Notes: generated by a model from the letters alone, not told the origin. A stretch of DNA of 64,000 bases from an uncultured Thermoleophilia bacterium (GCA_963695395.1 CAVOGK010000026.1:60511-124510); one strand, 5' to 3'. Shown: positions 33,486-56,467, counted from the stretch's first letter. Program-made: numbers and translations.

Positions 33486-35414
33486 TCAGGTCGGCGAACG
33501 CCCCCCTGTCTCCGCCGCCAGACGTCGGGCGACGGCTACCGCGTCGCCGGCGCTCGAGCCGTGGCCGTCCGCGCCGATGTCACGGGCGAAGCGCGCGGTG
33601 ACGGGAGCCCCGCCGACCATGACGCGTACGCCGTCGCGCTCACCCGACGCGACCAGCGCGTCGATCACGAGCCCCATCTGCGGCATGGTCGTGGTCAGCA
33701 GGGCGCTGAGGCCGAGAAGCGACGCGCGATGCTCTCGAAGCGCGCGCACGAACTCCTCGACCGGCACGTCCGTCCCGAGGTCGACCACGTCGAACCCCAC
33801 GCCACGCAGCATGATGGCCACGAGGTTCTTGCCGATGTCGTGAAGGTCGCCCCTCACAGTCCCAAGGACGACGGTGTCCGCCGCCCGCGAGACGCGTCCC
33901 TCGTTCATGAGCGCCTCGCCGAGCGCGTCGACCCCCGCCTGCATCGCGCGCGCCGCCAGCAGCATCTCCGGTATGAACGCCTCGCCCGCGGCGAAGCGCG
34001 CGCCGACGACGTCCATCGCGTGGATGAGGCCGTCGTCGAGGATCGCCTGCGCCGGCTGGCCGGCCGAGAGCAGCCGCCGACACCCGTCGTCGACGCTTGC
34101 CTCATCCCCGGCGAGGACGGCGGCGGCCAGCGAGGTGAACCCCTCGGCGACGGGAGCCGCCGGCTGCATCGGCGCGCGCCCACCCTCGACGAGGATGTCG
34201 GGCACCGCGCCCATCGCCAGCGGCAGTCTGCCGTCTGTCTGGAAGAACTCGTGCACGCGGCGCAGGCGGTCGAAGTCGGCCGTCGGCGGGACGGCATCGG
34301 TGATGCCGGCGATGAAGCGACGGCCCGGAGCTACGGCAGCTTTCACGTAGCGCAGGTAGTCGTCCAGGTCGGCGTCCGACGTCTGCTCGGGAATGAGATA
34401 GTCGGCCGGGATGCCGCCGATGATGCACAGATCGCCGGCCCAGCGCTCGTAGTACTCACGGAGGGTCAGGGCGGTCATCGGATACGGACAGACGGATTCC
34501 GCGGCATCGACGCCCGACGTCCTGATGAGCTCCATGAGGCCCCGGTTCTCGCCGTCGCAGTGCGTCAGGAGAGGGATGCCGCGAGGCCGCAGCACATCCG
34601 CGGCACGACGCAGCCAGGGGAGGATCTGCTCCTCGAAGAACGGCGGATACGTGATCGTCTCGTCGAAGTTGCCGCCCCAGGTCACGCCGTCGACGTCGGC
34701 GGACTCGTAGAACTCGAGAAACTGCTCGTAGAGCGGAGCGATCGCGGCGGCGAACTCCTCCAGTTCCGCCCGCCGGTCGTTGTAGAGCAGGTAGAAGTCG
34801 GTGCCGGGGAAGAAATGCTTCTGGATGTGGTGCATCGGCGAGGCCGGCTCCCCGGCCGCCGAGATCACGGCGCCGTCCTCGCCGATGCTCTGCCTGACCC
34901 GGCGATAGGTGTCCGGGTCCGGCACGAGACGCAGCGACCGGAACAGGTCGGCGACGACCCGCCAATCGTCGAACTCCTTGATGAAGGGCTGCGTGACCCA
35001 GGGGTAGGTGATCCCATTGCGGAGCATCTCGGGCGTGTGACTCAGGACGGCGCCCGCGTCGCCGGAGTCCGTCTCCGCCCGCACGTGGAGGCGATCGCCG
35101 TCGCGGCGCCACGAGAAGCCTACGTCGTCACCGAGGGTCAGCCGATAGCCACACTCCGGGGGCGTGTAGAGACCGAGAGCACTGAGGGCCATGCCCTCGT
35201 CCGACGACGCGAGGTAGGCGAAGGTGCTCGTCAGCAGGTAGACGCCCCACCCCTCGGCGCGACAGATCTCCTCGATCGAGGCATCCTCGAGTCCGGGCGG
35301 CAGGGTCCCCGCGGCCGCACGGCCGGTGTGCCAGAGGTCCAGCCGCGGTGCGTACGGGAGCCTGTCGGGCAGCTCACCTCGGAGGGCCGCCAGCGCCTGT
35401 GTCCTGAACCCCAT
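33486..35414 (-). CDS. Two-domain methyltransferase: N-terminal URO-D/MtaA-like domain fused to a C-terminal cobalamin-binding domain (CmuA-like architecture)
   Basis: URO-D-like N-terminal ~400 aa. C-terminal DLHDIGKNLVAIMLRGVGFDVVDLG...GLSAL B12-binding DxHxxG/SxL/GG signature. GGAAGGGAGGG SD before the ATG at 35414. Confidence 0.75.
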   Translation of the reverse strand: MGFRTQALAALRGELPDRLPYAPRLDLWHTGRAAAGTLPPGLEDASIEEICRAEGWGVYLLTSTFAYLASSDEGMALSALGLYTPPECGYRLTLGDDVGFSWRRDGDRLHVRAETDSGDAGAVLSHTPEMLRNGITYPWVTQPFIKEFDDWRVVADLFRSLRLVPDPDTYRRVRQSIGEDGAVISAAGEPASPMHHIQKHFFPGTDFYLLYNDRRAELEEFAAAIAPLYEQFLEFYESADVDGVTWGGNFDETITYPPFFEEQILPWLRRAADVLRPRGIPLLTHCDGENRGLMELIRTSGVDAAESVCPYPMTALTLREYYERWAGDLCIIGGIPADYLIPEQTSDADLDDYLRYVKAAVAPGRRFIAGITDAVPPTADFDRLRRVHEFFQTDGRLPLAMGAVPDILVEGGRAPMQPAAPVAEGFTSLAAAVLAGDEASVDDGCRRLLSAGQPAQAILDDGLIHAMDVVGARFAAGEAFIPEMLLAARAMQAGVDALGEALMNEGRVSRAADTVVLGTVRGDLHDIGKNLVAIMLRGVGFDVVDLGTDVPVEEFVRALREHRASLLGLSALLTTTMPQMGLVIDALVASGERDGVRVMVGGAPVTARFARDIGADGHGSSAGDAVAVARRLAAETGGRSPT

Positions 35415-35530
35415 GGACGACCCTCCCTTCCAGTTCGTCGCGCCAGCCAGCACACCTGATCGATCGCGGTCGCGATGCTACGGGGCCGCAGCAGCCCGGC
35501 GATGCCCCCAGTGTCGCGCCGCGGCGACCC

Positions 35531-35761
35531 TCAGACAGGGTAGGCCTCGTACTCCAGACCGGCTCTGACCATGGCCAAGTAGTTCTCCGCCGCGACGCCC
35601 GTGTGGATCGAGGCCGTGTTCACCGCCTCCCGGCCGAGGATCGCCCGGGCCGTGTCTCCGGGCAGCGCCTGCGTCGCCGCGAAGACGACGACCGAGACCA
35701 GCAGCAGGGTGAGGATCCCCAGGCCGATGCGGACGAGGATCAACTCCAGGAGCGGCGGCAA
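35531..35761 (-). pseudogene. In-frame chimeric remnant: 5' ~50 codons of an oppB paralog (TTG start, SD retained) joined to the last ~26 codons of a URO-D-like methyltransferase gene
   Basis: (M)PPLLELILVRIGLGILTLLLVSVVVFAATQALPGDTARAILG matches oppB1 (~85% nt identity). The tail SIHTGVAAENYLAMVRAGLEYEAYPV matches the C-terminus of the URO-D gene at 58099-59175. Confidence 0.55.
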
Positions 35762-35888
35762 GGTACGCGCTCACCTCCATGCAAGGACTGTCGCGGGAAC
35801 GATGCCGAGCCCGAAGCGACCGGCGCGGCGGCGGGCGCCAGGGGGAGTACGGGCGCCCGCCGCCAGGTACTTTGCGCCGGCAGGGACG

Positions 35889-37502
35889 TCACACGAAGGA
35901 GACGTCCTTGAAGCCGAAGTTGCCAAGCGGGACGCCGAGCTTCGAGGTCTTGAGACCCGAGACCCTATCGGACCCGGCATCGACCTGATTGCGGAACGCC
36001 CAGATGATGTAGCCGCCCTCGTTGAACTCGATCTCCTGCGCCTGACCGATGAGCTCGTTGCGCGCCGCATCGTCAACCGTGCCGAAGGCCTCCTTCACGA
36101 TGGCAAGCCACTTGTCGTTCTTCCAGTGCGTCTCGTTGTAGGGAGCCCCGGGCATGGTGGCCTGGCCGGCCTGACTGAGGTAGTTGCGTGTGTACCAGAA
36201 GTCCTGCGCAAAGGGCCAGCTCAGGTACTCGTCCCCGTAGAAGACGCCCGAGTCGGTCTTCTTGACCTTCACGGTGACGCCGGCCGCCTTGGCCTGTTCG
36301 GCGAAGACCTGCGCCGCCGCGACTTCGTCGGCTCCAAGAGCACCGGCGGACGTGACCAGTTCAACCGTGAGGTTGTTGTCGTAGCCCGCCGCCTTGAGCA
36401 GTGACTTGGCCTGCTCGATGTCCTGCATACGCTGGGGCAGGTCGGGAGTGCCCGGGTCGAACGGCGCGTACATGTCGTTACCCACGGCGCCGAAGCCACT
36501 GTAGGCCTGGTCGATCATCTGCTGGCGGTCGACGATCATGCGGAACGCCTGCCGGACGCGAACGTCGCTGTACGGCTTGACGTCGATGCGCATGGTGAAC
36601 GGACGCCATGCGCCCGTCTCGGCGTTGAGCAACAGGAGGCCGGCGGTCGCCTCGATCACCTTCGACTGGCTCGTCGGCAGGTTCGATATGGCCTCCACCT
36701 CGCCGCTCTGCAGAGCATTGACGCGCGCTGTGTCGTCGGCGAACTCGATGATCGTGAGCTCATCCACCCATGGGCTCCCGTCCCAGTACTCCGCGAACGG
36801 GGCGAAGGTGAACCGCTCACCAGGCTTGAACCCTGTGAGCTTGAACGGGCCGCAGCCGATGGGGTTCTTCGGATCGAAGTCGACCGGCACGAGCTGACTG
36901 CCACGGAATGCGAGCCCCTCCGTGAGCAGCACGTTCGGCGGGTCCATGCGGAACTCGACCGTGAGGTCATCGATCTTGACGGTGCCGCCAGGATTAAGGC
37001 CGGCGAGCGACGACACGGCCGTCTTCGGATCCTCGGGATCGACGATGCGCTCGAACGTGTACACGACGTCGTCGGCGGTGACGGGCTTGCCGTCGTGCCA
37101 GGTGAGGCCCGACTTCAGGCGGCACGTCCAGACGGAGCCGTCGTCGTTGGGTGTGATCTCCTCGGCCAGATGGTTGACCGCAATGGCGTCCGTGTCGAAC
37201 GCCGTGAGGCCGTCGTACATCTGGTATTGGATGGCGATGTCCGGTTCATAGGACGCCCGGTGCGGGTCGGCTGTGTCCTTCGCGGAGCCGCCCACGATGC
37301 CCACCCGGAGAGAACCGCCCTTGCTCGCGCCGGCTGTGGGAGACGCCGAGGCGTCGCCGTCAGTCTCGCTGCCGCCGCAGGCAGACACGATCGGCCCAAG
37401 AGCCGCCATGCCGCCGAGAACCGCCGCCCCCTTGAAGAGACTCCGGCGCGACACGCGCTTGTTGGAGACCTCCCAGATGAAACCCATCTCGTCGCTACTC
37501 AT
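35889..37502 (-). CDS. ABC transporter substrate-binding protein, family 5 (paralog of oppA1)
   Basis: MSSDEMGFIWEVSNKRVSRRSLFKGAAVLGGMAALGPIVSACGG signal. Homologous to oppA1 throughout. Confidence 0.8.
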   Translation of the reverse strand: MSSDEMGFIWEVSNKRVSRRSLFKGAAVLGGMAALGPIVSACGGSETDGDASASPTAGASKGGSLRVGIVGGSAKDTADPHRASYEPDIAIQYQMYDGLTAFDTDAIAVNHLAEEITPNDDGSVWTCRLKSGLTWHDGKPVTADDVVYTFERIVDPEDPKTAVSSLAGLNPGGTVKIDDLTVEFRMDPPNVLLTEGLAFRGSQLVPVDFDPKNPIGCGPFKLTGFKPGERFTFAPFAEYWDGSPWVDELTIIEFADDTARVNALQSGEVEAISNLPTSQSKVIEATAGLLLLNAETGAWRPFTMRIDVKPYSDVRVRQAFRMIVDRQQMIDQAYSGFGAVGNDMYAPFDPGTPDLPQRMQDIEQAKSLLKAAGYDNNLTVELVTSAGALGADEVAAAQVFAEQAKAAGVTVKVKKTDSGVFYGDEYLSWPFAQDFWYTRNYLSQAGQATMPGAPYNETHWKNDKWLAIVKEAFGTVDDAARNELIGQAQEIEFNEGGYIIWAFRNQVDAGSDRVSGLKTSKLGVPLGNFGFKDVSFV

Positions 37503-37928
37503 GGAACTCCCCCTTCTTGCCTGCCTGTATCGACCAACCCGACTTCGGCGGCGCTCGCCGCGGTCCGTCCCCAGAGCAGCCCCCTGGCTGCAGTTGAGGA
37601 AATCGGTAGACGTACGTCCCCCGTAGACCTCGGCGACAAACCGCTGCGCCACGTTGTCAACGACCATCCCTTATGGATTCTTCATATGTACCGCAGCATC
37701 TCCTGCAAGTCAACAGTGAATCCGAAGAGTATCTGGACATGATGCTTCTTTCTCGGCGTATCGCTCACCACCTCGCACGGCGGCAGGAGACTGTGCGGCT
37801 GCTCCTGGGTACTCCGAACTCCTCACACGCCCAGAACGCGCTCCGCACGACGGGTCGACCCCTCGCCCCTCCCCTCTCGCCGCTCATCGGCGCGATATGA
37901 TGCACTGAACCGCTCAGAGGGAGACCCC

Positions 37929-38399
37929 GTGGACGTTCTCGACCGCCGCATCCTGATCGAACTGCAACGGGACGGCAGCCTCACCAATGCCCGCCTCGCC
38001 GAGATCGTCGGCCTCAGCCAGTCGGCGATGAGCGAGCGCGTGCGCCGACTCGAGGGCGAGGGCCACATCACCGGCTACCGGGCGCTGGTCAGCCCGGCCA
38101 GCCTGGGCATCGGCCTGCAGGCGTTCGTAGCCGCCGAGCTGGTGCATCACGAGACCGCCTGCATCGAGGGCTTCGAGCGCGGCGTCGCCGCCCTGCCCGA
38201 CGTGCGCGCCTGCTACCACGTGGCCGGACGCTTCGACTACCTGCTGCACATCGCCGTGCAGGACCTCGAACACCTCGGCCGCCTGATCAAGGACGACATC
38301 GCCGCCATCCCCGGCGTCGACAAGGTGGAGACCATGCTCGTGTACTCCGAGGTCAAGGCGGACACGGGCTGGCCGACGCTTGAAGGCGACGGAGGCTGA
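37929..38399 (+). CDS. Lrp/AsnC-family transcriptional regulator (paralog of the 56468-56971 gene)
   Basis: GTG start. (M)DVLDRRILIELQRDGSLTNARLAEIVGLSQSAMSERVRRLE. ~88% nt identity to lrp3. Confidence 0.85.
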   Translation: MDVLDRRILIELQRDGSLTNARLAEIVGLSQSAMSERVRRLEGEGHITGYRALVSPASLGIGLQAFVAAELVHHETACIEGFERGVAALPDVRACYHVAGRFDYLLHIAVQDLEHLGRLIKDDIAAIPGVDKVETMLVYSEVKADTGWPTLEGDGG

Positions 38400-38521
38400 T
38401 CGGCGATGCGCTTGCGGCAGGTGGGGCAGCTAGATCCGGCGCCCCGCTCGCCAGCCCGTTCGGCGCGATACCCGAAGCCGCCGCCCCATGACCAGGCGCG
38501 CAAGCTGACACGCTGCACCGC

Positions 38522-39964
38522 TCATTGCTGCACGCCGCAGACCTCCGCGAGGGCGGCGAGCTGGTCAGATCCGAGCGCCGAGGCGCGGCCGTCGGCGGCG
38601 TCCGCCGCCCCAGTGGCGAGCACCTGATCCACGATCTCCCTGGCCACGTCCGTCTCGAGCACCCCCGCAGCCATCCACTGTTCGAAGGCCAGGCGACTGC
38701 CGATGACGGGGCTGAAGTGCTCGCCCGCCCGGGTACGCTCGCGCGTCACGCGCTCCTTGAGGTAGTTGCCGCCCGCGCCCAGGCGCGCGATGGCGTCGCT
38801 CATGACGCTCTCCACGCTGATATCGGCGCCCGCGACGATGTGCCGCACGAGCCGCGCGATGTCCGCGTCGATCGGCACCATCGGGAGGTGCCACACGCTC
38901 GACGAGGCCAGCGCCCCGAATCCCCCGCTGATGACATCCACCCCGGCGAGCGCCGCCGGCAGCACCTTGAGGCCCTTCTCGTACCCGGCCTGCACGCCGG
39001 GGTGCTTGGCGTCCGTCGAGAGGGCCGTGTTGTGGACGGGCAGACCGAGATGGTGTCCGATCTCGACCGAGGCGATGCCCATGATGGTGTTCTCCGGGCT
39101 GCCGAGGGACATCGACGAGGTGCGCATGTCGAGGACGCCGGGCCCGCAGCAGGCGAGCACCGCGGCCCCGGGGGCCGTGGCCTGGACGGCGGTGACCATG
39201 CCGAGGATCTCCGCCCACATCAACGCGAGCGTCCCCCCCACCGTGACCGGTGACGTGGCGCCGGCCATCGGCATGGTGTACGCCCAGACCGGCGCCCCCA
39301 TCGCTGCGTGCGCACAGGTCGCGTCGAGGAGCTCGCCGTTGACCTGCAGGGGAGCGCGGACGGCGCACAGGATAGCGATCCGCGGACGCCGCCTGAAGCC
39401 GTCCATGCCGTCCCCGAGGACGTCCATGATGCGCCGTACCGGCGCGACCTCGGTCGGGCAGTCGACGATCACGAATGGCTTCGAGGTCAGCGAGAGGTAT
39501 GCGTAGTACTCGGTCAGCTCGCGGCGTTCATCGGGCACGTCGTTCGCGGTCGCGAACGTCCACAGGAAGTCGATCTCGGGTGTCGCATCCATGACCGCGG
39601 TGCCCTCACGGATGTCCTGCAGCGTCGACTGCCGCACCTTGCCCGTGCGGAAATCCAACGTCTTGGCGTGGCAACCGGACGGATTGAAGAACGGTCCGGT
39701 GTGGCGGTCAAGGACCACGTCGCGTTCCGGCGTGGCTCCGGCCAACACGAGCCGGTCGGGCAACTGGGCGAGAGAGGCGCGCACGAGGTCCGGCGGCATG
39801 CGCACCATGCCGGACTCCCGGTCCACCGTCGCGCCGCGCTCCTCGAGAGCGTCGAGCGCGCGCGATCCCTTCATGCGCATGCCCTCCCGCTCGAGCACGC
39901 TGAGAGCGGACTCGACGACGAGGTCGCGCTCGGACGGGTCCAGGCACGTGAGACGAAGGTTCAT
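38522..39964 (-). CDS. MttB-superfamily corrinoid-dependent methyltransferase, non-pyrrolysine paralog 2
   Basis: Homologous to the 19219-20649 gene (LSLGSPENTIMGIASVEIGHHLGLPV, AGYEKGLKVLPAALAGVDVISGG). ATG at 39964 with AAAGGGG SD. Confidence 0.8.
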   Translation of the reverse strand: MNLRLTCLDPSERDLVVESALSVLEREGMRMKGSRALDALEERGATVDRESGMVRMPPDLVRASLAQLPDRLVLAGATPERDVVLDRHTGPFFNPSGCHAKTLDFRTGKVRQSTLQDIREGTAVMDATPEIDFLWTFATANDVPDERRELTEYYAYLSLTSKPFVIVDCPTEVAPVRRIMDVLGDGMDGFRRRPRIAILCAVRAPLQVNGELLDATCAHAAMGAPVWAYTMPMAGATSPVTVGGTLALMWAEILGMVTAVQATAPGAAVLACCGPGVLDMRTSSMSLGSPENTIMGIASVEIGHHLGLPVHNTALSTDAKHPGVQAGYEKGLKVLPAALAGVDVISGGFGALASSSVWHLPMVPIDADIARLVRHIVAGADISVESVMSDAIARLGAGGNYLKERVTRERTRAGEHFSPVIGSRLAFEQWMAAGVLETDVAREIVDQVLATGAADAADGRASALGSDQLAALAEVCGVQQ

Positions 39965-40084
39965 GCAACCCCTTTTCAGGACGCGCCGGCGGCGAGGGCC
40001 GTCGGCAGCGGTGTCCGTAGGTGACCTGCTCGTAGTCAAGCGCGAATGGTACACCCCTGACCGGCCTCGCGGATGCTGCGCGCT

Positions 40085-41485
40085 CTACTCCTCCGCGGGC
40101 GGCGTCAAGCTTTTGCGGACGTCCTTCGAGCGAACAAGGAGGTGCTGCGGGCCCGTGGGCGAGGGCGCAAAGCCGTACTTCTCAAAGAAGCCGCGCGCGG
40201 CGCCGTCACCAGCATCGACGAGGACTGCCCGGGAGAACATCGTGGAGGACGCCTGCAGGCAGCGAGACAACGCCTGCACGAGCATCGCCTCGCCGATGCC
40301 CCTGCCCTGCTCCGGGGTGTCGACCGCCATGCGCTCGAGCACGATCACCGGGATGTCCAGAGGACCCTGGCCGAGCTCGTGCTCGATCGTCGCGGGTGGG
40401 CTGACCGTCGCCGCCTTGAGTGCGAAGTAGCCGACCACTCGCGCATCCCGGGCGGCCACGCGGGTCGTGCCGGCCCGCTGGTCGATGAGCGCGCGCTGCG
40501 CGAGGTACTCGTCCAGGGCAGCGTCGCCACAGGTGAAGCCGGCGACATCGTCGGTCGCCCCGAGGGCCTCGAGCCGGAGCGACGCCCCGTCGCCCTCGAA
40601 TGGGCTCGCCGCCGCAGCCGCCTCGGCGAGCGCCGTGATCGGCTCCGACTTGCCCGACAACTGCTCGCCGAAGGCCGTCCAGGCCTCGTCGTCGAGCACG
40701 AACCGGGGCTGGTCGGGCAGCGGCTGGTCGGGCGGGCTGACGAAGCCTCCGCCGCCGTCCTGGCCGATGGGGCACGCCAGTTCGCAGGCACGGCAGTACT
40801 TGGTGACGTTGCTGGGCTCGTCGAGTGCCATGATCGCCCCGTCGAGCACCTCGAAGTCCACGTCGAGTTGATCCTGCTCCTGCTTGCAGAGTGTCCGCGC
40901 GTACGAGCCGCTACGGAACGCGGTCCGCGGGCAGACACGCTGACAGGGCTTGCTGCACGTCGCGCAGGGATCGAAGCCCACGAGCTGCGGGGTCGGTCCC
41001 AGTTCCGCTTCCATGAAGATGCCGCGAAGCCGTATGCGCGGGCCGTACTCGGGCGTGATCAGCAGGTTGTCCCGGCCGAACACACCCAGGCCGGCGAGGA
41101 CTGCGGCATCCTTGAGGAAGGCCCCGCCGTACTCGATCTGGTACGGCAGCGACAGGGCGCCCATGTCGAGTTCTTCATTCATCCACACGCGGAGCCGCCG
41201 GGACTGGGCGGCCAACTCGCGGTTGCCGGGGGTGAAGCCTTTGACCTTCAGGCTCCACCAGTCGAGAACGGGCTCCGACGCCGGGTGCGCCAGCCCCCAC
41301 ACCAGCATCGTCTTGAACTCGTCCTTCCATTCCACGCCCTTGTACTCGGGGTAGAAGGGGTTCTCGTCGTAGGTCGCGTATGACGGAGCGTCCTTGAGGT
41401 CCGCGATGCGTACGATGCCGACCAGCGAAGCACCCTCTTCCCTGGCCTTGTCCATGATTCTCTGCGTGAGCCCGTCGCTGCCCAT
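40085..41485 (-). CDS. Fusion protein: QueG-like (DUF1730 + double 4Fe-4S cluster) N-terminal region with a C-terminal GNAT acetyltransferase domain
   Basis: Cys clusters CATCSKPCQRVCP and CRACELACP. C-terminal GNAT pattern. ATG 41485 with AAAGGA SD. Confidence 0.5.
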   Translation of the reverse strand: MGSDGLTQRIMDKAREEGASLVGIVRIADLKDAPSYATYDENPFYPEYKGVEWKDEFKTMLVWGLAHPASEPVLDWWSLKVKGFTPGNRELAAQSRRLRVWMNEELDMGALSLPYQIEYGGAFLKDAAVLAGLGVFGRDNLLITPEYGPRIRLRGIFMEAELGPTPQLVGFDPCATCSKPCQRVCPRTAFRSGSYARTLCKQEQDQLDVDFEVLDGAIMALDEPSNVTKYCRACELACPIGQDGGGGFVSPPDQPLPDQPRFVLDDEAWTAFGEQLSGKSEPITALAEAAAAASPFEGDGASLRLEALGATDDVAGFTCGDAALDEYLAQRALIDQRAGTTRVAARDARVVGYFALKAATVSPPATIEHELGQGPLDIPVIVLERMAVDTPEQGRGIGEAMLVQALSRCLQASSTMFSRAVLVDAGDGAARGFFEKYGFAPSPTGPQHLLVRSKDVRKSLTPPAEE

Positions 41486-41547
41486 GTGTCTGGATCCTTT
41501 CCGCCGTGAGGTCGGGCCCGCGGCCCCTCCTCGCACGTCCGTGACTT

Positions 41548-43620
41548 CTAACGGTCCCCGCTCAGTCTGATGAGCGCGTCGGCCGCGACCGCGCCCTGGC
41601 CCTCGGCCAGGACCAGGAGCGGGTTCACGTCGAGCTCCACGATGGCCGCGGGATCCTTCTGGACAAGGGCGGCGACCGCAAGGACGACGTCGGCGGCCGC
41701 GTTCAGGTCGGCCTGCGGACACCCCCGGAAGCAGTTCAGGAGCGGCGCGCACATGAGTCCGCCCAGCGCGTCCAGGACGTGCTCCCGGGTCACCGGGAGC
41801 AGGAGGGACGCGCTGTCCTTCATGAGCTCGACGAGGATGCCGCCGCCGCCGACCACCAGGTACGGGCCGAACTGCTCGTCCTGGGCGACGCCGACGATGA
41901 TCTCCGCGACGGCGTCCTCGACCATGCGCTCGACGAGGAAGGACTCCGAGAGCCCCGCCATCATCGCCATCGCAGACGACACGTCGTCGGCGCTCCGCAG
42001 GTCGAGGCGCACGCCACCCACGTCGGTCTTGTGGGCGACGCCCAGCGCCTTGACGACGACCGGGAAGCCGAGCGCCTCGGCGGCCGCGACCGCCTCCCCG
42101 GCGCTGCCGACGACCCGCGCCTCGGGAACGGGGACGCCGGCGTCGGCGAGCATGCGCTTCGAGGCCGCCTCGTCAAGCACGGTGACGGCGTCGCGATCGA
42201 CCCGGAACGGAGCCACCAGCAGGGGCTGACTCGGCGGCTGCTCCCAGGCCGCGCCGATGTCCACGGCCGCCTGGACCGCCGCCACCGCATCGTCGATGCC
42301 GGCGAGCAGCGCGACGCCGTCTTCCATGAGGCGCTCGGCCACGGGCTCGGCGACCGTGTCGGCGAAGGTCGCGAGCACCGCGCCCTTGGTGCCGGTGGCC
42401 TTGGTCGCACGCACGAAGCCCCGCTCCGCCCCGCCCCAGGTGGACTGGTCGCACCTGTCCGCCCTCGGGTAGTCGAGCGCGCACAACGCGATGTCGAAGT
42501 CCTCCGCCATGAAGGCGCCGAAGATCTCGGCGTTCGCGTCGTCGTCGTCCCACGTGTACATCTGATAGTCGAACGGGTTGGAGGCGACGACCCGTTCGTG
42601 GACGACCGCGCGCACCCCCTCCGCGACCTTCTCGGACAGCGGCGGCAGGGTCAGCCCCGGCGTCAAGGCGTCGGCCAGCAGCGTGAGGTCGCCGCCCGAC
42701 GTGCTCATCGCGCCGACGCGGCCGCCCTGGAGGGGGCCCACCACGTGAAGCAGCTTCAGCGCCTCGACCAGAGCCTCGAGCGAGTCGACCCGTGCCAGCC
42801 CGAGCCGCTCGAACAGCGCACTCACGAGCACGTCGGAACCGGCCAGCGAAGCGGTGTGGGACACGACCACCTTCTGCGCGACCTGCGAGCGGCCGGTCTT
42901 CACCGCGACGATGGGCTTGCCCAGCTCGCGGGCCACGTCGACCGCCTCCTGAAAGCCCTTCGGATCCGGCAGCGTCTCGAGATAGAGCCCGATCGCCGTG
43001 ACCTCGTCCCGGCGCGCGAAGATCCTGATGGCGTCGTTGAGGTCGAACTTGAGCCGGTTGCCCAGCGAGACCATGTAGGCGATGGGCAGGCCGCGCCGCT
43101 GCATGGTGATGTTGAAGCCGACGTTGGACGACATCGTGATGATCGCCACGCCGCGGTCCACCCGGCGGCCGCCCTGCTGATCCGGCCAGAGCATCGCCCC
43201 CGTGACGTAGTTGAGCAGCCCGTAGCAGTTGGGGCCGACCAGCGCCATGTCTCCCGAAGCCTCGAGCAGCTGCCGCGTGAGCTCGGAGCCCTCTTCGCCC
43301 GCCTCGGCGAAGCCGGTGGCGTACGAGATGGCGCCACCGGCGTCCCGCGCGGCGAGGTCCCTGATGATGTCGATGGTGAGATTGCGGTTCACGCCGACGT
43401 AGGAGGCGTCGGGGCTTGCCGGCAGCTCGTCGACCGAGCGGTAGACCTTGCGCCCCTGCACCTGCTCGGCCTTGGGGTGGACAGGCCAGATCTCGCCCTT
43501 GTAGCCCATGAGGTCGCACTGACGGATCGCCTCCTGAGCCTGCGCGCCGCCGAAGACGGCGATCGACTGCGGGTTCAGAAGGCGCTCGAATCGCGTCGGG
43601 TCAGTGGTCACCGCATCCAT
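41548..43620 (-). CDS. ADP/NDP-forming acyl-CoA synthetase (acetate--CoA ligase family), fused alpha/beta domains
   Basis: CoA-binding and succinyl-CoA-synthetase-like domains followed by an ATP-grasp domain. ATG 43620 with GGAGGT SD. Confidence 0.75.
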   Translation of the reverse strand: MDAVTTDPTRFERLLNPQSIAVFGGAQAQEAIRQCDLMGYKGEIWPVHPKAEQVQGRKVYRSVDELPASPDASYVGVNRNLTIDIIRDLAARDAGGAISYATGFAEAGEEGSELTRQLLEASGDMALVGPNCYGLLNYVTGAMLWPDQQGGRRVDRGVAIITMSSNVGFNITMQRRGLPIAYMVSLGNRLKFDLNDAIRIFARRDEVTAIGLYLETLPDPKGFQEAVDVARELGKPIVAVKTGRSQVAQKVVVSHTASLAGSDVLVSALFERLGLARVDSLEALVEALKLLHVVGPLQGGRVGAMSTSGGDLTLLADALTPGLTLPPLSEKVAEGVRAVVHERVVASNPFDYQMYTWDDDDANAEIFGAFMAEDFDIALCALDYPRADRCDQSTWGGAERGFVRATKATGTKGAVLATFADTVAEPVAERLMEDGVALLAGIDDAVAAVQAAVDIGAAWEQPPSQPLLVAPFRVDRDAVTVLDEAASKRMLADAGVPVPEARVVGSAGEAVAAAEALGFPVVVKALGVAHKTDVGGVRLDLRSADDVSSAMAMMAGLSESFLVERMVEDAVAEIIVGVAQDEQFGPYLVVGGGGILVELMKDSASLLLPVTREHVLDALGGLMCAPLLNCFRGCPQADLNAAADVVLAVAALVQKDPAAIVELDVNPLLVLAEGQGAVAADALIRLSGDR

Positions 43621-43784
43621 CTCAACCTCCGTTGTCACGGGTTCTCGCAGGTCCGATCGTCGAGCCGGCGATGGTCGGGCACGCAGGCGCGCCGCGGAGC
43701 GTGGCGCGTGGCCGGGCAGACGCGTGGTCACTGCGGTGGTTCACGCGGGCGTCGAAGCGCTCCGGGGCAACGCACGCGGCCTGG

Positions 43785-44543
43785 TCAAAGCCTGAGGCCG
43801 CCGTCGACCGGGATGACCCGTCCGTTCATGTAGTCGTTCTCGAGCGCGAAGCGCACGGCGTGCGACACCTCGGCGGGCTCCGCCATCCTGCGCAGCGGAA
43901 TGGCGGACGTCAAGCGCTCGCGCGCCTCCTCGGGCATGGACCTGGCCATGTCTGTGGCCGTGAGACCGGGTGCGACGGCGACGGCGCGGATGCCGTACCG
44001 AGCGAGCTCCATGGCCCACGTGCGCGTCATGGAGACGATGCCGCCCTTCGCGGCGCTGTAGTTCGTCTGGCCGGCGTTGCCCATCCACGAGAGAGACGAG
44101 ATGGAGACGATGACGCCGCCCGTGCCCTGGCCGACCATGTGATAGGCCGCCTCACGCGCGCACAGGAACACGCCTGTCAGGTCGACGTCGATCACCGCCT
44201 GCCACCGTGACAGCGGGAGCTTCTCCAGCTGGTCCCCGGTCTTCTTGATGAGCAGGCCGTCGCGGTTCATGCCGGCGTTGTTGACGACGGCGTCGACGCC
44301 GCCGGCCTCCTTCACGAACTCGGCGAAGAGCTGCTCGACGCTGGCCTCGTCGCTGACGTCCGCCGGCGTCGCCCACAGCCGCAGGCCGAGCCTGTCAGCG
44401 TCGGCCCGGAGGTCGTCCAGCGCCGTTTCGTCGACGTCGCAGACACCGACGTGGGCTCCGGCCCCGGCCAGGTCGAACGCGAACGTACGGCCCAGGCCGC
44501 GTGCCCCACCGGTGATGACGACGCGTGCTCCCGCGATCTCCAC
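43785..44543 (-). CDS. Short-chain dehydrogenase/reductase (FabG-like)
   Basis: ITGGARGLG Rossmann motif, NNAG, YSAAK catalytic motif. Confidence 0.8.
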   Translation of the reverse strand: MEIAGARVVITGGARGLGRTFAFDLAGAGAHVGVCDVDETALDDLRADADRLGLRLWATPADVSDEASVEQLFAEFVKEAGGVDAVVNNAGMNRDGLLIKKTGDQLEKLPLSRWQAVIDVDLTGVFLCAREAAYHMVGQGTGGVIVSISSLSWMGNAGQTNYSAAKGGIVSMTRTWAMELARYGIRAVAVAPGLTATDMARSMPEEARERLTSAIPLRRMAEPAEVSHAVRFALENDYMNGRVIPVDGGLRL

Positions 44544-44644
44544 GGCTCACTCCTCCATCCTGGGCCCGCCCGGCATCGCCGGCGCAGCAGCGCGGCGCGC
44601 TCGGTCGGGCGGATTCTACGCCGACGCTCGCGCCGGCGATCGCC

Positions 44645-45241
44645 TCACGCCGGCGTGACGACCGAGTCGCGGCCGAGCGCGAAGGCCTTCTCGTTGACCG
44701 CGAAGATCTTGGCGGGCACGGCCCGTTCCAGGCCCTGCCGCCACGACTCGGCGGCGAAGGACATCACGGTGCTCGTCGCACCCATCAGGGCGACGTTCAC
44801 GGCTCGCACGGTGCCCGCCTCGCGCGCCAGACCCTCGGCGTCGACGGCCAGCAGCCGGACGCCGCGGCCAGCAGCCGCGACGGCCAGATCCTCCGGGTAC
44901 GCCTGCTCGCGCCGCAGCACGCTGCCCGGCAGGATGCGCGTGGTGGCGGCGCAGACGAGCGTGCCGCCCTCGCCCAGCATGTCCAGCCCGCGGAAGCCCT
45001 CGAGCAGCTCCGTGGCGAGGACGTAGTCGGGACGGCGGAAGACCGGCGAGAAGACCTTGGGACCGAAGCGGACCGTGCTGAGCACGCTGCCGCCCCGCTG
45101 GGCCATGCCGTGTACCTCGCTGCCCTTGACTTCGAGGCCTTCGGCGGACGCCGTCTCGGCAAGGATGGATGCCGCGAGCAGGATGCCCTGCCCGCCGACG
45201 CCGATCAGTGCGACCGTGGTGGTGTCCGAAGCGGTGCTCAC
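44645..45241 (-). CDS. iorB: Indolepyruvate ferredoxin oxidoreductase beta subunit
   Basis: (V)STASDTTTVALIGVGGQGILLAASIL, IorB-like. GTGA overlap with the iorA stop. GGAGG SD. Confidence 0.8.
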   Translation of the reverse strand: MSTASDTTTVALIGVGGQGILLAASILAETASAEGLEVKGSEVHGMAQRGGSVLSTVRFGPKVFSPVFRRPDYVLATELLEGFRGLDMLGEGGTLVCAATTRILPGSVLRREQAYPEDLAVAAAGRGVRLLAVDAEGLAREAGTVRAVNVALMGATSTVMSFAAESWRQGLERAVPAKIFAVNEKAFALGRDSVVTPA

Positions 45242-47022
45242 GAGGCCTCCTCTCCGAGGCTGAGGGTCAGCGCGCCGCGCTTGCAGACCTCGACGCAGAG
45301 GCCGCATCCCGTGCAGGCTTCGGTGATGCTGACGGTGTCCGCCTGCGGCGCGATGGCCGGACAGCCGATGGCGAGACAAAGACCGCAGAGGTTGCAGCGC
45401 TCGTCGTCGACGAGCACGGTGCCGTTCTTCTCGCGCACGAGCAGGGCACACGGAGCCTCGGCGACGATCACGCCCAGACCCGGCGTCGCGACCTCCGTCT
45501 TGATGCCGTCGACGATCGCATCGTAGTCCTTGGCGTCGATGGTGGTGCAGCGGACGTGGATGCCGTCGCACAGCTCCTGGATGGTGATCGCCGGACCCTC
45601 GGTGAGGTCCGGGCGCACGCCGCTGCCCGGGTGTCCCTGGTGGCCGGTCATGGCCGTGGTGCGGTTGTCGAGGATCATGACGAGCCCCTCGGCCTCGTTG
45701 TAGGAGGCGCTGATGAGCGCCGTGATGCCGGAGTGGAAGAAGGTGGAGTCGCCGATGACGGCCGCGGCCGCCTTGCGCCCGAGCGCCTGGTTGAAGCCGG
45801 CCATCATGCCGATGCTGGCGCCCATGCAGAGGGAGCTGTCCAGGGCGTTCAGCGGCGGATCGGCGCCCAGCATGTAGCAGCCGATGTCGCCCATCGCGGC
45901 GAGCTTCTGGCGCTTCAGGGCTGTGAAGACCGAGCGATGCCGGCAGCCGGGGCACAGCACCGGCGGGCGCACGGGAAGCTCCGACTCGGCCGGGAGGTCG
46001 CTGAGGCGCGGCGCCGGCGGGAACACCGGGCTCCGGCGCTGGGGCGGCTCGGCTGCGAGGAAGGGCTCGAGCGCCGCGAAAACGACGTCTGGCTCGAGCT
46101 CGCCGTCGGCGGGGATGGCCTCCTTGCCGATCACCGGCAGGCCGAGCATGCGCACGTGGTCCTCGATGAACGGGTCGAGCTCCTCGACGACGAAGACCTT
46201 GGACACGCGCTCGTAGAGGTCGGCGATCTTCTGATACGGCAGCGGATACGACAGGCCGAGCTTGAGGTGCCAGGCCTCCGGGAAGGCCTCACGCGCGTAC
46301 TGGTGGACGACGCCGGAGCTGATGATGCCGAAGTCGGCGGTCCCCTCGATCAGGGGGTTGAGCGGGCTCGCGTCGCTGCGCTCGCGCAGCCGCTCGAGGC
46401 GCTCGATGATGAACCGGGTGCGGAGCCGGGCCCACTGCGGCACCATGAGATACTTGGTGATGTCCTTGACGTAGTCGATCCGCTCGGCCTCGATGCGCTC
46501 GCCCTGCTCGACCTGGCCGCGCCCGTGCGAGAGCTTGGTGCTCGAGCGCAGCAACACCGGCGTGTCGAACTCCTCCGAGAGCGCGAACGCTTCGGCGACG
46601 AAGTCGTAGCACTCCTGGCTGTCCGACGGCTCGAACATCGGGATCTTGGCGAACCGGGCGTAGTGGCGGCTGTCCTGCTCGTTCTGCGACGAGTTCATCC
46701 CCGGGTCGTCGGAGCTGACGATGACCAGCCCGCCGTTGACGCCCGTCTCCGTGAGCGTGAGCAGGGGGTCGGCGGCGACGTTGAGGCCCACGTGCTTCAT
46801 CGCGACGAGGGTGCGCACGCCCGCCCGGGAGCACCCGACCGCGGTCTCGAGCGCGACCTTCTCGTTGACGCACCATTGCGCGTGCACACCGTCGAGGCCG
46901 GCTGCGGTCTCGATGATCTCGGTGGACGGGGTGCCCGGATAGGCGCAGGCGAAGCCGACGCCGGCGCGCGCCGCGCCGTAGGCGATGGCTTCGTTGCCCA
47001 TCAGGAAGAGTGTGGTGTCCAT
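45238..47022 (-). CDS. iorA: Indolepyruvate ferredoxin oxidoreductase alpha subunit
   Basis: ThDP domain, CPGCRHRS, two C-terminal 4Fe-4S motifs (CNLCGLCLAIGCP, CTGCGLCVEVC). Start at ATG 47022 or GTG 47031. Confidence 0.85.
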   Translation of the reverse strand: MDTTLFLMGNEAIAYGAARAGVGFACAYPGTPSTEIIETAAGLDGVHAQWCVNEKVALETAVGCSRAGVRTLVAMKHVGLNVAADPLLTLTETGVNGGLVIVSSDDPGMNSSQNEQDSRHYARFAKIPMFEPSDSQECYDFVAEAFALSEEFDTPVLLRSSTKLSHGRGQVEQGERIEAERIDYVKDITKYLMVPQWARLRTRFIIERLERLRERSDASPLNPLIEGTADFGIISSGVVHQYAREAFPEAWHLKLGLSYPLPYQKIADLYERVSKVFVVEELDPFIEDHVRMLGLPVIGKEAIPADGELEPDVVFAALEPFLAAEPPQRRSPVFPPAPRLSDLPAESELPVRPPVLCPGCRHRSVFTALKRQKLAAMGDIGCYMLGADPPLNALDSSLCMGASIGMMAGFNQALGRKAAAAVIGDSTFFHSGITALISASYNEAEGLVMILDNRTTAMTGHQGHPGSGVRPDLTEGPAITIQELCDGIHVRCTTIDAKDYDAIVDGIKTEVATPGLGVIVAEAPCALLVREKNGTVLVDDERCNLCGLCLAIGCPAIAPQADTVSITEACTGCGLCVEVCKRGALTLSLGEEAS

Positions 47023-47079
47023 AACCCTCACCTTGACCGAATGATTTGCGAGCCGTCAGACCCTTGTCAGGAACTATTC

Positions 47080-47108
47080 CTGTGTCAATGACTCATGATA
47101 GGACACAG
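47080..47108. promoter_or_regulatory. Inverted repeat CTGTGTC-N15-GACACAG upstream of iorA
   Basis: 7-bp exact arms, 50-80 nt upstream of the iorA start, in a 170-nt intergenic region. Confidence 0.2.
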
Positions 47109-47203
47109 TGCGGGCGATTGGCAACAGACCGAAATACCTTCGCCGCCGATGCCTCCGCACCGGCGGCGACCGGCGCGACCGCCCATCGCCGGAGGCCGTG
47201 GAC

Positions 47204-48847: not shown

Positions 48848-48875
48848 CAGTGCCTCCGTCGCTCGGTGCGCAGGC

Positions 48876-50126: not shown

Positions 50127-50344
50127 CGGGCACCTCTCTCCACCTCTCGGCCTCTCGGCCGGGTGGCCGCGAACGCCTGCGCGCGGAGGCCGCGAACCAC
50201 CCGCATGATAGACGGAGCATCTCCTGCTCGTCAACGCTTCTTCCGCCATCTGTGCTGTCAGGACGACATTCCATGGAGATTCTCCGTTCCTGGTCTCGTT
50301 CCTCGGGATTCCTTTCGGCTGACAGCGACGCTGCCGGAACCCCG

Positions 50345-51121
50345 TCAGATGAACTCCGTGTGGCCGTCCACGCCGATCGCCTGACCCGAGATGCGCGCTC
50401 CCTGCTCCGAGCAGAGGAAGAGGATCATCGCTGCGACGTCATCCGCTGTGACGAACGTGCGCAACGAGCAGCCACGCACCCACTGCTCGCGCAGGTCCTC
50501 GCAGGTGATGCCCTTCTCCTCCGCTTCGAGGCGCATCACCCGCTCAAGGCGCTCGCCGACGACGCTGCCGGGACACAGGGCGTTGGCGCGGACGCCGAAC
50601 GGCCCGAGCTCCATGGCGACCGTCTTCATCAGGCCGATCAGCCCCCACTTGCTGGCCACGTACGGGGCTCGGGTCGGGCCACCGAACACGCCGTAGTGGG
50701 ACGACATGATGACGACCGAGCCGGAGCGCTGGTCCTTGAAGACCGGGGCGGCCCGGCGCGTGCACAGAAAGGCCCCCGTGAGATCCACGTCGATGGTGCG
50801 CTGCCAGTCGGCGAGTGAGACGTTCTCGATGCAGGCCACCGGGCCGCCGACGCCGGCGTTGTTGACGAGGACGTCGAGTCCTCCGAGGTGCGCCTGCGCC
50901 TCTTCGAAGAGGCGATCGACGTCGGCCTCGCGGGAGACGTCGGCGACCGTCGCACCGGCGCGCGGCTCGGCCTCGCGCAAGGCCTCCACCGCAGCGGGAT
51001 CCACGTCGCACGTGAAGACCGAGGCACCGGAGTCCACGAACTGCTTGAGAATCACGTTGCCGATCCCGCTTCCCCCAGCCGTCACGATCACCCGGGCGCC
51101 AGACAGGCCCGTCAGCTGCAT
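50345..51121 (-). CDS. Short-chain dehydrogenase/reductase
   Basis: VTAGGSGIG, NNAG, YVASKWG. ATG 51121 with AAGGGTGG SD. Confidence 0.8.
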   Translation of the reverse strand: MQLTGLSGARVIVTAGGSGIGNVILKQFVDSGASVFTCDVDPAAVEALREAEPRAGATVADVSREADVDRLFEEAQAHLGGLDVLVNNAGVGGPVACIENVSLADWQRTIDVDLTGAFLCTRRAAPVFKDQRSGSVVIMSSHYGVFGGPTRAPYVASKWGLIGLMKTVAMELGPFGVRANALCPGSVVGERLERVMRLEAEEKGITCEDLREQWVRGCSLRTFVTADDVAAMILFLCSEQGARISGQAIGVDGHTEFI

Positions 51122-51230
51122 CGCGCACCACCCTTCATGTCGGAGGCTGAACCCACCGCAGCTGTTCGCGGCCACCCATTCTACGCCGGACCGAGGGTCG
51201 TCAAGCGCCGGACGCGGCGGAGAGTCCGCG

Positions 51231-56458: not shown

Positions 56459-56467
56459 GATCCCCTC

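Follow-up and report, generated by a model that had tools for sequence, protein, structure and literature searches.

A protein of 642 amino acids (aa), encoded in a 64,000-nt stretch of DNA from an uncultured Thermoleophilia bacterium (CAVOGK010000026.1:60511-124510; hereafter the window, with positions counted over the whole stretch), joins a divergent barrel of the uroporphyrinogen decarboxylase (UroD) fold to a C-terminal corrinoid-binding module. It is one of a widespread and unstudied group of UroD-fold/corrinoid fusions in which the active-site triad is altered. Judged by its sequence, the protein is securely predicted to be a corrinoid-dependent methyl-transfer protein that has its own carrier and works in multi-component systems. 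We tentatively read it as a first methyltransferase (MT1) fused to its carrier in the style of the chloromethane enzyme CmuA, with a corrinoid module that is probably shared with neighboring methyltransferases. A role as second methyltransferase (MT2) seems less probable, as we discuss below.

A single gene for two fused domains

The gene is one uninterrupted open reading frame (ORF) on the minus strand, from an ATG at 35414-35412 to a stop codon at 33488-33486, and is preceded by a Shine-Dalgarno sequence (Table 1). The window has a G+C content of ~69%, and its nearest relatives are Thermoleophilia and 'Actinomycetes' metagenome-assembled genomes (MAGs); related metagenomic loci are designated here by L-numbers. 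The fusion protein of L133, the closest relative, is 92-93% identical to that of the window, and the orthologous genes of L133 and L134 are both exactly 1929 nt long, as is the window gene. The dN/dS ratios against these two loci are 0.17 and 0.20 and are similar in both domains; the fusion gene is under purifying selection and functional. In the full-length AlphaFold2 model (predicted local distance difference test score, pLDDT, 89; predicted template modeling score, pTM, 0.88) the two domains are both confidently predicted. An Rfam gathering scan of the whole window matched only PYLIS_3, and no cobalamin riboswitch was found upstream of the gene.

An artifact of assembly or annotation, in which adjacent genes for a UroD-like protein and a corrinoid protein were read as one, has next to no chance of explaining the fusion and is already refuted. 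Such gene pairs do occur: in many related loci a gene for a corrinoid protein comes, as a separate unit, after a UroD-type gene, and a few stand-alone homologues of the N-domain, of ~400 aa, exist. The window ORF, however, contains neither a stop codon nor a frameshift, and the same fusion is found in 93 of the 96 assessable loci, which come from independent ENA, JGI, NCBI and Logan assemblies. The loci fetched and assessed include 80 from a metagenome scan; three of the 96 encode stand-alone proteins, and five further loci, cut by contig ends, are not counted. The identical gene length in L133 and L134, purifying selection on both halves and the two-domain model also speak against an artifact. 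The preliminary description of the window, made before this analysis, had proposed a single 642-aa protein with two domains, and the single ORF and the Pfam matches bear it out. It had named an assembly chimera as a finding that would overturn this proposal; the number of fused loci and the dN/dS ratios dispose of that concern. The three strings that it quoted, DLHDIGKNLV (at residue 523), GFDVVDLG and GLSAL, are all present in the protein.

The C-terminal corrinoid module

Pfam places a B12-binding_2 helical cap at residues 428-498 (PF02607; 70 bits, E 1e-19) and a Rossmann-type B12-binding domain at residues 514-626 (PF02310; 93 bits, E 1.5e-26), so that the B12-binding domain proposed earlier proves to be a canonical one. 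The cobalamin signature DxHxxG/SxL/GG is intact, as D-L-H-D-I-G at residues 523-528 (DNA 33831-33848), S-A-L-L at 570 and V-G-G-A-P at 600, and is conserved across the family. Sequence matches of the module in the PDB are 1y80, MttC (7xcn), 4jgi, MtmC, MtaC and the Cob domain of MetH. Foldseek searches with the full-length model are dominated by this domain (MttC 7xcn, 4jgi, 1y80); the N-domain was therefore modeled and searched alone. These features identify the C-terminal half as a canonical His-on corrinoid module of the methyltransferase type, and cofactor binding is predicted.

The NCBIfam models for named subtypes score below their cut-offs (MtgC_2, 190 bits against 370; pyl_corrinoid/TIGR02370, 175 against 215; MtbC, 174 against 350). 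The module belongs to the cognate corrinoid protein family and is, by these scores, not assignable to a named subtype such as MtgC, MtbC or MtaC. The corrinoid domains of the fusions and of the stand-alone carriers associated with MttB are all 45-55% identical, and a neighbor-joining tree does not discriminate among them; the corrinoid domain of CmuA is an outgroup to all of the fusion and stand-alone carriers compared. A six-frame search of the 64 kb with hidden Markov models (HMMs) found no other B12-binding module, not even with the threshold relaxed to E<=10.

The N-terminal domain and its active site

The N-domain (residues 1-400) is far more divergent. The Pfam URO-D match, at residues 137-390, is marginal (25.4 bits against a cut-off of 23.9), and many homologues have no precomputed PF01208 match. 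Neither phmmer nor the family profile finds a PDB sequence match for the domain at E<=10, and none of the UroD-type NCBIfam models, including NF040654 (MtaA), NF041608 (MtbA) and TIGR01463 (mtaA_cmuA), matches the fusion at E<=1e-3. Structure and profile comparisons are clearer. An AlphaFold2 model of residues 1-411 has a pLDDT of 93.7, and the top 23 PDB matches found with it by Foldseek are all HemE or MtaA (4ay7), with nothing else significant (E 1.6e-9 to 1e-6, TM 0.5-0.6, 12-14% identity). Profile comparison by hhalign aligns the family with the zinc-type MtaA-like and CmuA domains (91% probability, E 9e-7). The domain is thus a UroD-fold barrel, although a very divergent one, that carries an extension at its N-terminus and an insertion of four strands, and the earlier assignment to the URO-D family holds independently of the weak Pfam score. 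The closest relative of the N-domain is a family that we call URO-D356-type (BLAST E 1e-12 against 1e-6 for the zinc type; HMM E 1e-11).

The family alignments reveal a set of invariant motifs: W246-G-x-N-x-D, H285-(C)-D287-G-E-N, (E306)-x-x-C309-P-x-P-x-T314, G333-G-x-P, G370-x-x-D373 and R383. In an alignment of zinc-type UroD methyltransferases with the CmuA N-domain, H236, C238 and C314 are invariant. The hhalign columns put H285 on the His of this HxC motif, D287 on its Cys, and D373 on the Cys of P-E-C that is the third zinc ligand. The positions of the zinc triad are therefore invariant in the fusion family as well, but they are His285/Asp287/Asp373 (H/D/D) and not the His/Cys/Cys of MtaA and CmuA. 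With Asp at both Cys positions, the Cys-containing, thiol-activating zinc site of MtaA, MtbA and MtsA is absent. The replacement of thiolates by carboxylates argues against thiol chemistry of the coenzyme M type, and from the alignment the H/D/D site appears compatible with a harder metal to which a substrate rich in oxygen would bind.

Comparison with CmuA

The preliminary description called the protein CmuA-like. The likeness holds for the layout, a single polypeptide in which a corrinoid domain comes after a UroD-superfamily methyltransferase domain, and not for the sequence of the N-domain. Compared with cmuA of the cmuBCA cassette on plasmid pJM105 (L052:2935-4779; the Methylobacterium/Hyphomicrobium enzyme type), the fusion aligns by BLASTP only at residues 421-630 (33% identity over 210 aa, E 4e-28), with no pairwise similarity between the N-domains. 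At the position of the cobalt ligand CmuA has Gln (G-N-T-Q-D-I-G) and the fusion has His (G-D-L-H-D-I-G), and CmuA keeps the zinc motif T-H-T-C...P-G-C where the fusion has H/D/D.

That the protein is a true CmuA orthologue, a dehalogenase of chloromethane or another halomethane, is very improbable. The shared domain order and the similarity of the corrinoid domains are what such an orthologue should have; the lack of similarity between the N-domains, the missing TIGR01463 match, the lost HxC...C motif and the His ligand contradict it. So does the gene context, which has no cmuB, cmuC, folD or purU and features transporters of organic acids, of the tripartite ATP-independent periplasmic (TRAP) type or the major facilitator superfamily (MFS). 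The LarA-N-like protein whose gene lies just before the fusion in Deltaproteobacteria shows no homology to CmuC, and a scan of the window with reference proteins found neither a pterin-binding MT2 of the cmuB type, as the preliminary description had noted for cmuB, nor an activator gene. The resemblance to CmuA is one of architecture and probably logic, not of orthology, and the fusion event is probably independent of that in CmuA. CmuA nonetheless provides a precedent for the fusion of an MT1 to its carrier (PMC9768040).

The family and its gene neighborhoods

A search with the N-domain only retrieves 295 proteins, nearly all of ~636 aa with both B12 Pfam domains, and the metagenome scan yields at least 460 loci of the family. 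An exhaustive HMMER search of 1.84 billion representatives gives 85 clusters (at 50% identity) at E<=1e-30. At E<=1e-10 the number rises to 421, and among the more remote of these many are stand-alone proteins of ~395 aa. Members whose source names were looked up carry generic JGI labels ('methanogenic corrinoid protein MtbC1', 'corrinoid protein') or the NCBI label 'hypothetical protein'. A literature search found no described UroD-corrinoid fusion besides CmuA and MtsD/F/H. A different fusion, of 598 aa and URO-D356 type with a clear PF01208 match, is encoded at L046:5057-6853 in the same locus as two family members, which indicates that fusion of a UroD methyltransferase to a carrier arose more than once.

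Neighbors within 10 kb were counted in 61 loci with at least 4 kb of flanking sequence, scanned with reference proteins. The commonest is a URO-D356-type paralogue (19 loci), followed by TRAP transporter subunits (15-18), a stand-alone carrier (17), DUF1638 (14, of which 12 lie within 3 kb of the fusion), a zinc-type MtaA-like UroD (12), a pterin-binding MT2 (12), RACo (11), LarA (9), GntR (8), MttB (6), MFS (6), a LarA-N-like protein (6, +3) and IlvD/Edd (5). Both DUF1638 and RamA/RACo have been linked to the reactivation of corrinoids (PMC5764234; PMC12478193). A typical deltaproteobacterial locus reads (pterin-MT2), URO-D356, carrier, DctPQM, GntR, zinc-type UroD, (carrier), fusion, DUF1638, LarA, RACo; in another deltaproteobacterial type, a carrier, URO-D356, pterin-MT2, RACo and DUF1638 lie beside one or two fusions, each with its own TRAP transporter. 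In four loci (L046, L108, L125, L130) two or three fusion paralogues accompany one pterin-MT2/RACo set, and often each paralogue adjoins a TRAP or MFS transporter of its own. In five others (L050, L005, L001, L053, L003) a transporter adjoins the fusion, and no other methyltransferase component lies within 10 kb. A glycerate kinase gene directly follows the fusion in some Deltaproteobacteria/Candidatus Adiutrix MAGs (L007:11970-13172, L009:12095-13228, L008:2164-3228), which hints at glycerate as a possible pathway product.

MttB is linked to the fusion in the clade nearest the window (the window, L002, L004, L133, L134) and in a few loci outside Actinomycetota, yet in only 6 of the 61 loci overall. 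In L047/48 the order is IclR, IlvD, fusion, MttB, with a LarA-N-like protein, MttB, GlcD/F-like proteins and a 2-hydroxyacid dehydrogenase on the other strand; L049 has fusion, MR_MLE, MttB, and L058 is also linked to MttB. These three have MttB genes and no stand-alone carrier, whereas in L133 and L002 a separate carrier lies by MttB. None of the census loci with MttB has a pterin-MT2 within 10 kb.

Pyrrolysine-type methyltransferases in close relatives

In its nearest relatives the fusion is found with MttB and MtbB genes of the pyrrolysine (Pyl) type, which lie 0.2-7 kb upstream, in the same operon in two loci and 5-7 kb away in two. L134 has a tight operon of TetR, MttB(Pyl), MtbB(Pyl), MFS and fusion, with no other B12 domain in 22 kb, and L004 has MttB(Pyl), MtbB(Pyl), fusion and MFS, with no other carrier in the reference-protein scan. 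L133 and L002 have a carrier, MttB, MttB(Pyl) and MtbB(Pyl) on one strand, LarA-N-like/SDR and IlvD/Edd genes on the opposite strand, and then a UroD paralogue and the fusion. The Pyl genes (L133:1847-3313 and 3345-4727; L134:5821-8669; L004:6914-9760; L002:2365-5246) are split at a conserved in-frame UAG, MtbB (PF09505) into 353+106 aa.

The window ends within such a gene. Its translation reads ...WVAGA*GDSKV...; the gene is 91% identical to that of L133, which has the same TAG, and Rfam places PYLIS_3 at 63732-63831 with 64.5 bits. It is a remnant of an ancestral cluster of corrinoid protein, MttB, MttB(Pyl) and MtbB(Pyl), and brings the MttB-family genes of the window to three, beside one corrinoid module. 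The MtbB(Pyl) gene of the four relatives is missing, with 43 nt in its place (63307-63350, compared with L133:3306-4796). No tRNA-Pyl was found in the window or in six related loci, and no pyl genes were seen in these stretches; a literature search found no paper on pyrrolysine in Thermoleophilia, the class to which the related MAGs belong. The meaningful MttB link of the fusion is with the pyrrolysine-type MttB/MtbB of its nearest relatives, and not with MttB2, the MttB-family gene closest to it in the window.

Proposed function

The preliminary description offered two functions. In one, the protein is both carrier and MT2 and serves the MttB paralogues; in the other, it is an MT1 in its own right, for another substrate. 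Both remain as readings, and we lean tentatively towards MT1. The URO-D356 family, to which the N-domain is closest, occupies the MT1 slot in many loci, beside a corrinoid protein, a pterin-MT2, RACo and DUF1638, which favors the N-domain as an MT1. Several fusion paralogues, with transporters of their own, beside one MT2/activator set form the pattern expected of substrate-specific MT1s, and the census counts of pterin-MT2, RACo and DUF1638 point the same way. In the UroD superfamily, moreover, it is MT1s that act on the known non-thiol substrates, chloromethane and aryl methyl ethers, and an MT2 role is known for thiol acceptors only, on a Cys-ligated zinc (PMC8630106; PMC10418091). Together with the precedent of CmuA, this makes the MT1 direction preferable.

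In the proposed mechanism, the C-terminal module would hold cobalamin base-off/His-on and cycle between Co(I) and CH3-Co(III). The N-domain, acting as MT1, would bind a small methylated substrate at His285/Asp287/Asp373, a 'hardened' counterpart of the His/Cys/Cys zinc site, and the Co(I) of the tethered corrinoid would abstract its methyl group in the way that CmuA demethylates chloromethane. A separate MT2 would then pass the methyl group on, a part that falls to a pterin-binding methyltransferase in distant relatives, and oxidized cofactor would be repaired by activators of the RACo/DUF1638 type encoded elsewhere. In the actinobacterial lineage the carrier is probably also used by the free UroD paralogue of the window (Table 1), the pyrrolysine-type MttB/MtbB and the non-Pyl MttB paralogues.

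Sharing of the corrinoid module with co-encoded methyltransferases in this lineage is probable. It is suggested by the sole B12 domain of the window beside its MttB-family genes, by L134 and L004, where MttB(Pyl), MtbB(Pyl), the fusion and MFS occur with no other carrier detected, and by the MttB genes of L047/48, L049 and L058. Where a locus has no separate carrier, the module is the obvious one for the co-encoded methyltransferases, whether the N-domain is an MT1 or an MT2.

The substrate may be a methylated hydroxy- or sugar acid. This guess is prompted by the recurrent neighbors LarA, LarA-N-like, IlvD/Edd, MR_MLE, GlcD/F-like, 2-hydroxyacid dehydrogenase and glycerate kinase, and by the recurrence of TRAP/MFS transporters and of GntR-FCD/IclR regulators. 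We speculate that a metal bound by H/D/D chelates the carboxylate and the ether oxygen of such a compound. The data establish the architecture, the fold, the cofactor motifs, the conservation, the purifying selection, the gene neighborhoods and the rearrangement; the MT1 direction, metal binding by H/D/D, carrier sharing and the nature of the substrate are all points that we infer.

Several observations weigh against an MT1-carrier fusion of this kind. Neither the family nor its nearest relatives include a characterized protein; all are labeled 'hypothetical protein'. The pathway is incomplete as seen in the window, which lacks a pterin-binding MT2 and an activator gene. Metal binding by the H/D/D site is a prediction from alignment, and the substrate guess, which comes from the neighborhood, leaves the co-occurrence of MttB-family (N-methyl) enzymes unexplained. 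Finally, the tightest linkage in the clade is to the methyltransferases for trimethylamine (TMA) and dimethylamine (DMA); the most economical explanation there is that the UroD-like domain takes the MT2 role of MtbA, which would make L134-type operons complete.

In this second reading, which we consider possible but doubtful, MttB(Pyl), MtbB(Pyl) and the non-Pyl MttBs would methylate the corrinoid module, and the N-domain would pass the methyl group to an acceptor other than coenzyme M, for instance tetrahydrofolate, a thiol of low molecular weight or some other nucleophile. The protein would then be a covalent analogue of MttC/MtbC-MtbA. L134 and L004 would form complete three-component systems, with no other carrier detected and no other MT2 candidate, and the IlvD-fusion-MttB and fusion-MR_MLE-MttB arrangements of L047/48 and L049 would likewise be complete. 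The missing pterin-MT2 in the census loci with MttB agrees with this, as do the three MttB-family genes and one corrinoid module of the window. The MT2 of methanogen methylamine metabolism, MtbA, is itself a UroD-family enzyme, and a unit of corrinoid protein and MT2 is shared by several MttB-family MT1s in Eubacterium limosum (MtqC/MtqA) and Ruegeria (MtgC/MtgD) (PMC12478193).

The active site, however, has Asp/Asp in place of the thiol-activating Cys/Cys, and no UroD-superfamily MT2 with a non-thiol acceptor is known, pterin acceptors being served by enzymes of the MeTr/MtrH type (PMC8630106). The low frequency of MttB in the census also speaks against an MT2 role, and several fusion paralogues beside one pterin-MT2, as in the deltaproteobacterial loci, make little sense for an MT2. 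In L133 and L002, moreover, a stand-alone carrier adjoins MttB/MtbB.

A bifunctional protein of the MtsA/MtsB type, whose UroD-fold domain both loads and unloads its own corrinoid with no separate MT1 or MT2, is improbable. It would suit the five loci in which only a transporter lies beside the fusion. MtsA is described as a UroD-family 'bifunctional MT1/MT2' that carries out both half-reactions (PMC8630106), and fused corrinoid/methyl-transfer proteins, MtsD/F/H, exist (PMC10418091). The thiol/thioether chemistry of MtsA-type enzymes, however, needs the Cys-ligated zinc that is absent here, and further methyltransferase components occur in most loci.

A broader proposal, of which we are likewise doubtful, is that the N-domain, its zinc site changed from His/Cys/Cys to His/Asp/Asp, would define a functional class of its own among UroD-fold corrinoid methyltransferases. 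The class might take either of two forms: (a) an MT1 in which a hard divalent metal chelates and activates methylated, probably O-methyl, hydroxy- or sugar acids, or (b) the first UroD-superfamily MT2 for a non-thiol acceptor, fused to its carrier.

Local neighborhood and recent rearrangement

The neighbors named in the preliminary description, an MttB-family gene, an Lrp regulator, an OppA-like binding protein and a free URO-D paralogue, are all real (Table 1). Its pairing of the fusion with the first three did not stand. By blastn synteny, L133 8876-9950 (UroD) corresponds to window 59173-58099, and L133 10001-11987 (fusion) to window 35414-33429; the two genes are 50 nt apart in L133 and 22.7 kb apart in the window. 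The intervening block holds the binding protein, Lrp, MttB2 and a module of GNAT, acyl-CoA synthetase, SDR and POR genes.

The junction is still visible in the gap of 474 nt upstream of the fusion, which holds a chimeric relic ORF. Residues 1-50 of the relic are the N-terminus of an ABC permease, 82% identical to the intact permease at 23571-24536, and its last ~29 residues (48-76), joined in frame, are the C-terminus of a UroD paralogue, 66% identical to the free UroD. In L002, where a UroD gene directly precedes the fusion, the 3' end of that gene and the intergenic sequence align in DNA with the relic tail, its stop codon and the following GGGTCGCC. With its permease reduced to the relic, the binding protein is left an orphan, and MttB2 is in a separate transcription unit. 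The adjacency of the OppA-like protein, Lrp and MttB2 to the fusion is accidental and results from a recent, lineage-specific rearrangement. In L134 it is the opposite flank of the fusion that holds the GNAT, ADP-forming acyl-CoA synthetase, SDR and POR genes (window 40085-45314) and FAH (window 57215-57892), which indicates that these modules have been shuffled among close relatives.

The free UroD is the partner that the preliminary description had rightly suspected: its orthologues in L002 and L133, to which it is 83-84% identical, lie directly upstream of the fusion, and the relic still precedes the fusion in the window. It is the closest relative of the fusion N-domain in the window (N-domain HMM E 1.3e-11), and its K-H-S-D-G-N sits at the place of the H285/D287 motif. 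NCBIfam models of the MtaA/CmuA type give it 58-92 bits, far under their cut-offs of 244-600.

Table 1. Features of the fusion gene and its surroundings in the window.
Feature	Position	Strand	Basis or remark
Whole gene, UroD-fold methyltransferase domain fused to corrinoid-binding module (642 aa)	33486..35414	-	ORF, Pfam, AlphaFold2, dN/dS
Shine-Dalgarno GGGAGGG, 6 nt before ATG	35421..35427	-	Read directly from sequence
N-terminal domain, residues 1-400, divergent UroD-fold TIM barrel; four-strand beta insertion at ~90-125	34215..35414	-	Pfam, AlphaFold2, Foldseek, hhalign
Invariant motif H285-C-D287-G-E-N290	34545..34562	-	Alignments A1, A2, A4; hhalign columns (zinc-type comparison, alignment A5)
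Invariant Asp373 (G-I-T-D)	34296..34298	-	Alignments, hhalign
Inter-domain linker, residues ~401-424, variable length and sequence	34143..34214	-	Alignment A1; low pLDDT at 412-415
B12-binding_2 helical cap, residues 428-498	33921..34133	-	Pfam PF02607; PDB 1y80, 7xcn MttC, 4jgi
Rossmann-type B12-binding domain, residues 514-626	33537..33875	-	Pfam PF02310; NCBIfam; motifs
Chimeric relic ORF (76 codons) directly upstream of fusion	35531..35761	-	Marks rearrangement junction
22.7-kb block between fusion and ancestral upstream partner	35415..58098		blastn synteny; absent here in L133, L002
Orphan SBP_bac_5 (OppA/DppA-like) binding protein	35889..37667	-	Pfam 263 bits; downstream permease reduced to relic
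Lrp regulator, between fusion and MttB2	~37929-38399	opposite to both	
MttB2, non-Pyl MttB family, 3.1 kb from fusion	38522..40054	-	Pfam MTTB 213 bits; NCBIfam; separate transcription unit
MttB1, non-Pyl MttB family	19219..20649	-	Pfam MTTB 252 bits
Free UroD paralogue, 358 aa, motif K-H-S-D-G-N	58099..59175	-	Pfam URO-D 119 bits
IlvD/Edd-family dehydratase, divergent from free UroD gene	59476..61191 (start approximate)	+	Pfam
LarA-N/DUF362-like protein 'unk430', recurrent neighbor	61086..62468	+	Weak Pfam DUF362/Lar_N
3' part of pyrrolysine-type MttB, cut by window end	63343..64000	-	In-frame TAG 63829-63831; PYLIS_3; Pfam MTTB

The IlvD/Edd linkage recurs in L133, L002, L047/48, L058 and L093. 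The unk430 protein is 40-45% identical to proteins of L044, L007 and L009, and is encoded directly upstream of the fusion in Deltaproteobacteria. In L133 the LarA-N-like and SDR parts form one 706-aa fusion; the corresponding window region (61086-63305, plus strand) is broken into three frames (61209-62465, 62435-62908, 62940-63305) and may be a pseudogene or contain a sequencing frameshift. An ORF on the minus strand at 62495-63268 was rejected as a gene, being a shadow of the SDR-coding region on the plus strand.

Other features of the window may be noted. A pair of CCG/Fe-S and FAD-oxidase genes downstream of the fusion in L133 (12103-14789) is missing from the window. A LarA homologue at 14138-15430 (minus strand), which adjoins phosphoglycerate kinase, is 29% identical over 339 aa to the deltaproteobacterial LarA that follows fusion and DUF1638. 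Directly upstream of MttB2, a 555-aa ORF (40085-41752, minus strand) ends in a GNAT domain, and its middle region bears a weak similarity to the Fe-S portion of reductive dehalogenase and QueG, both of which are B12 enzymes. A block near the fusion locus, with a SulP sulfate permease, ATP sulfurylase, a Sulfotransfer_5 sulfotransferase and Lrp, is conserved (27944-32077; L133:16346-20189; L002:16580-20593) and suggests sulfation of some metabolite. A second SBP_bac_5 gene (24751-26607, minus strand) matches only the first ~96 Pfam positions, has a low third-position G+C (0.67), and may be frameshifted or decaying.

Relation to known systems and significance

The gene set of the nearest relatives resembles the methanogen system of MttB/MttC, MtbB/MtbC and MtbA, in that Pyl-MttB, Pyl-MtbB, a module of the MttC/MtbC/MtgC type and a UroD-fold protein are encoded together; the MFS gene sits at the place of mttP in the methanogen operons. 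The differences are that the hosts are bacteria (Actinomycetota), and so have no coenzyme M, and that carrier and UroD-fold domain form one protein. A Zn-thiolate site and an MtmB gene are also absent, and the MT2 role of the UroD-fold domain is uncertain.

A second comparison is with ether cleavage, made here by description. OdmB/VdmB of Acetobacterium dehalogenans, MtvB/MtvC of Moorella and MtoB/MtoC of Methermicoccus involve UroD-superfamily MT1s for non-thiol donors, and these systems cluster MT1, cognate carrier, a pterin-type MT2 and a RACE/RACo activator (PMC10418091; PMC8630106). The deltaproteobacterial relatives of the fusion have exactly that gene set, except that MT1 and carrier are one polypeptide and that the neighbors point to aliphatic hydroxy- or sugar acids and not to aromatic ethers.

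MtsD, MtsF and MtsH of Methanosarcina acetivorans also combine a covalent corrinoid module with a UroD-family methyltransferase (PMC10418091). Unlike the fusion, they are archaeal and dependent on coenzyme M. Their domain order is the reverse of that of the fusion, and they carry out thiol/thioether chemistry on zinc.

In the MtgC/MtgD(E) unit of Ruegeria pomeroyi and the MtqC/MtqA unit of Eubacterium limosum, one corrinoid protein serves several MttB-family MT1 paralogues, and DUF1638 and RamA-type proteins handle reactivation (PMC12478193; PMC5764234). The proximity of DUF1638 to the fusion in 12 of the 61 census loci recalls these units; their MT2s, in contrast, are separate pterin-binding TIM barrels, with no UroD-fold domain.

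The range of methylated compounds open to microbes (methylamines, betaines, methyl ethers, methyl halides) is set by their corrinoid methyltransferase systems, which thereby influence methane precursors and the flux of C1 compounds through soils and sediments. The predicted H/D/D site of the fusion family differs in a defined way from that of every characterized UroD-type methyltransferase. For the lineage of the window, gene adjacency misleads with respect to the 'operon partners' OppA, Lrp and MttB2. In that lineage the fusion lies in an apparent bacterial cluster for pyrrolysine-dependent TMA/DMA methyltransferases, which makes it a concrete candidate for what methylamine use in soil Actinomycetota is missing, a carrier or a second methyltransferase. 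Should the N-domain be a new MT1 of form (a), it would represent an unrecognized route of cobalamin-dependent demethylation, widespread in anoxic sediments and soils; should it be an MT2 of form (b), it would complete pyrrolysine-dependent demethylation of TMA and DMA in soil Actinomycetota.

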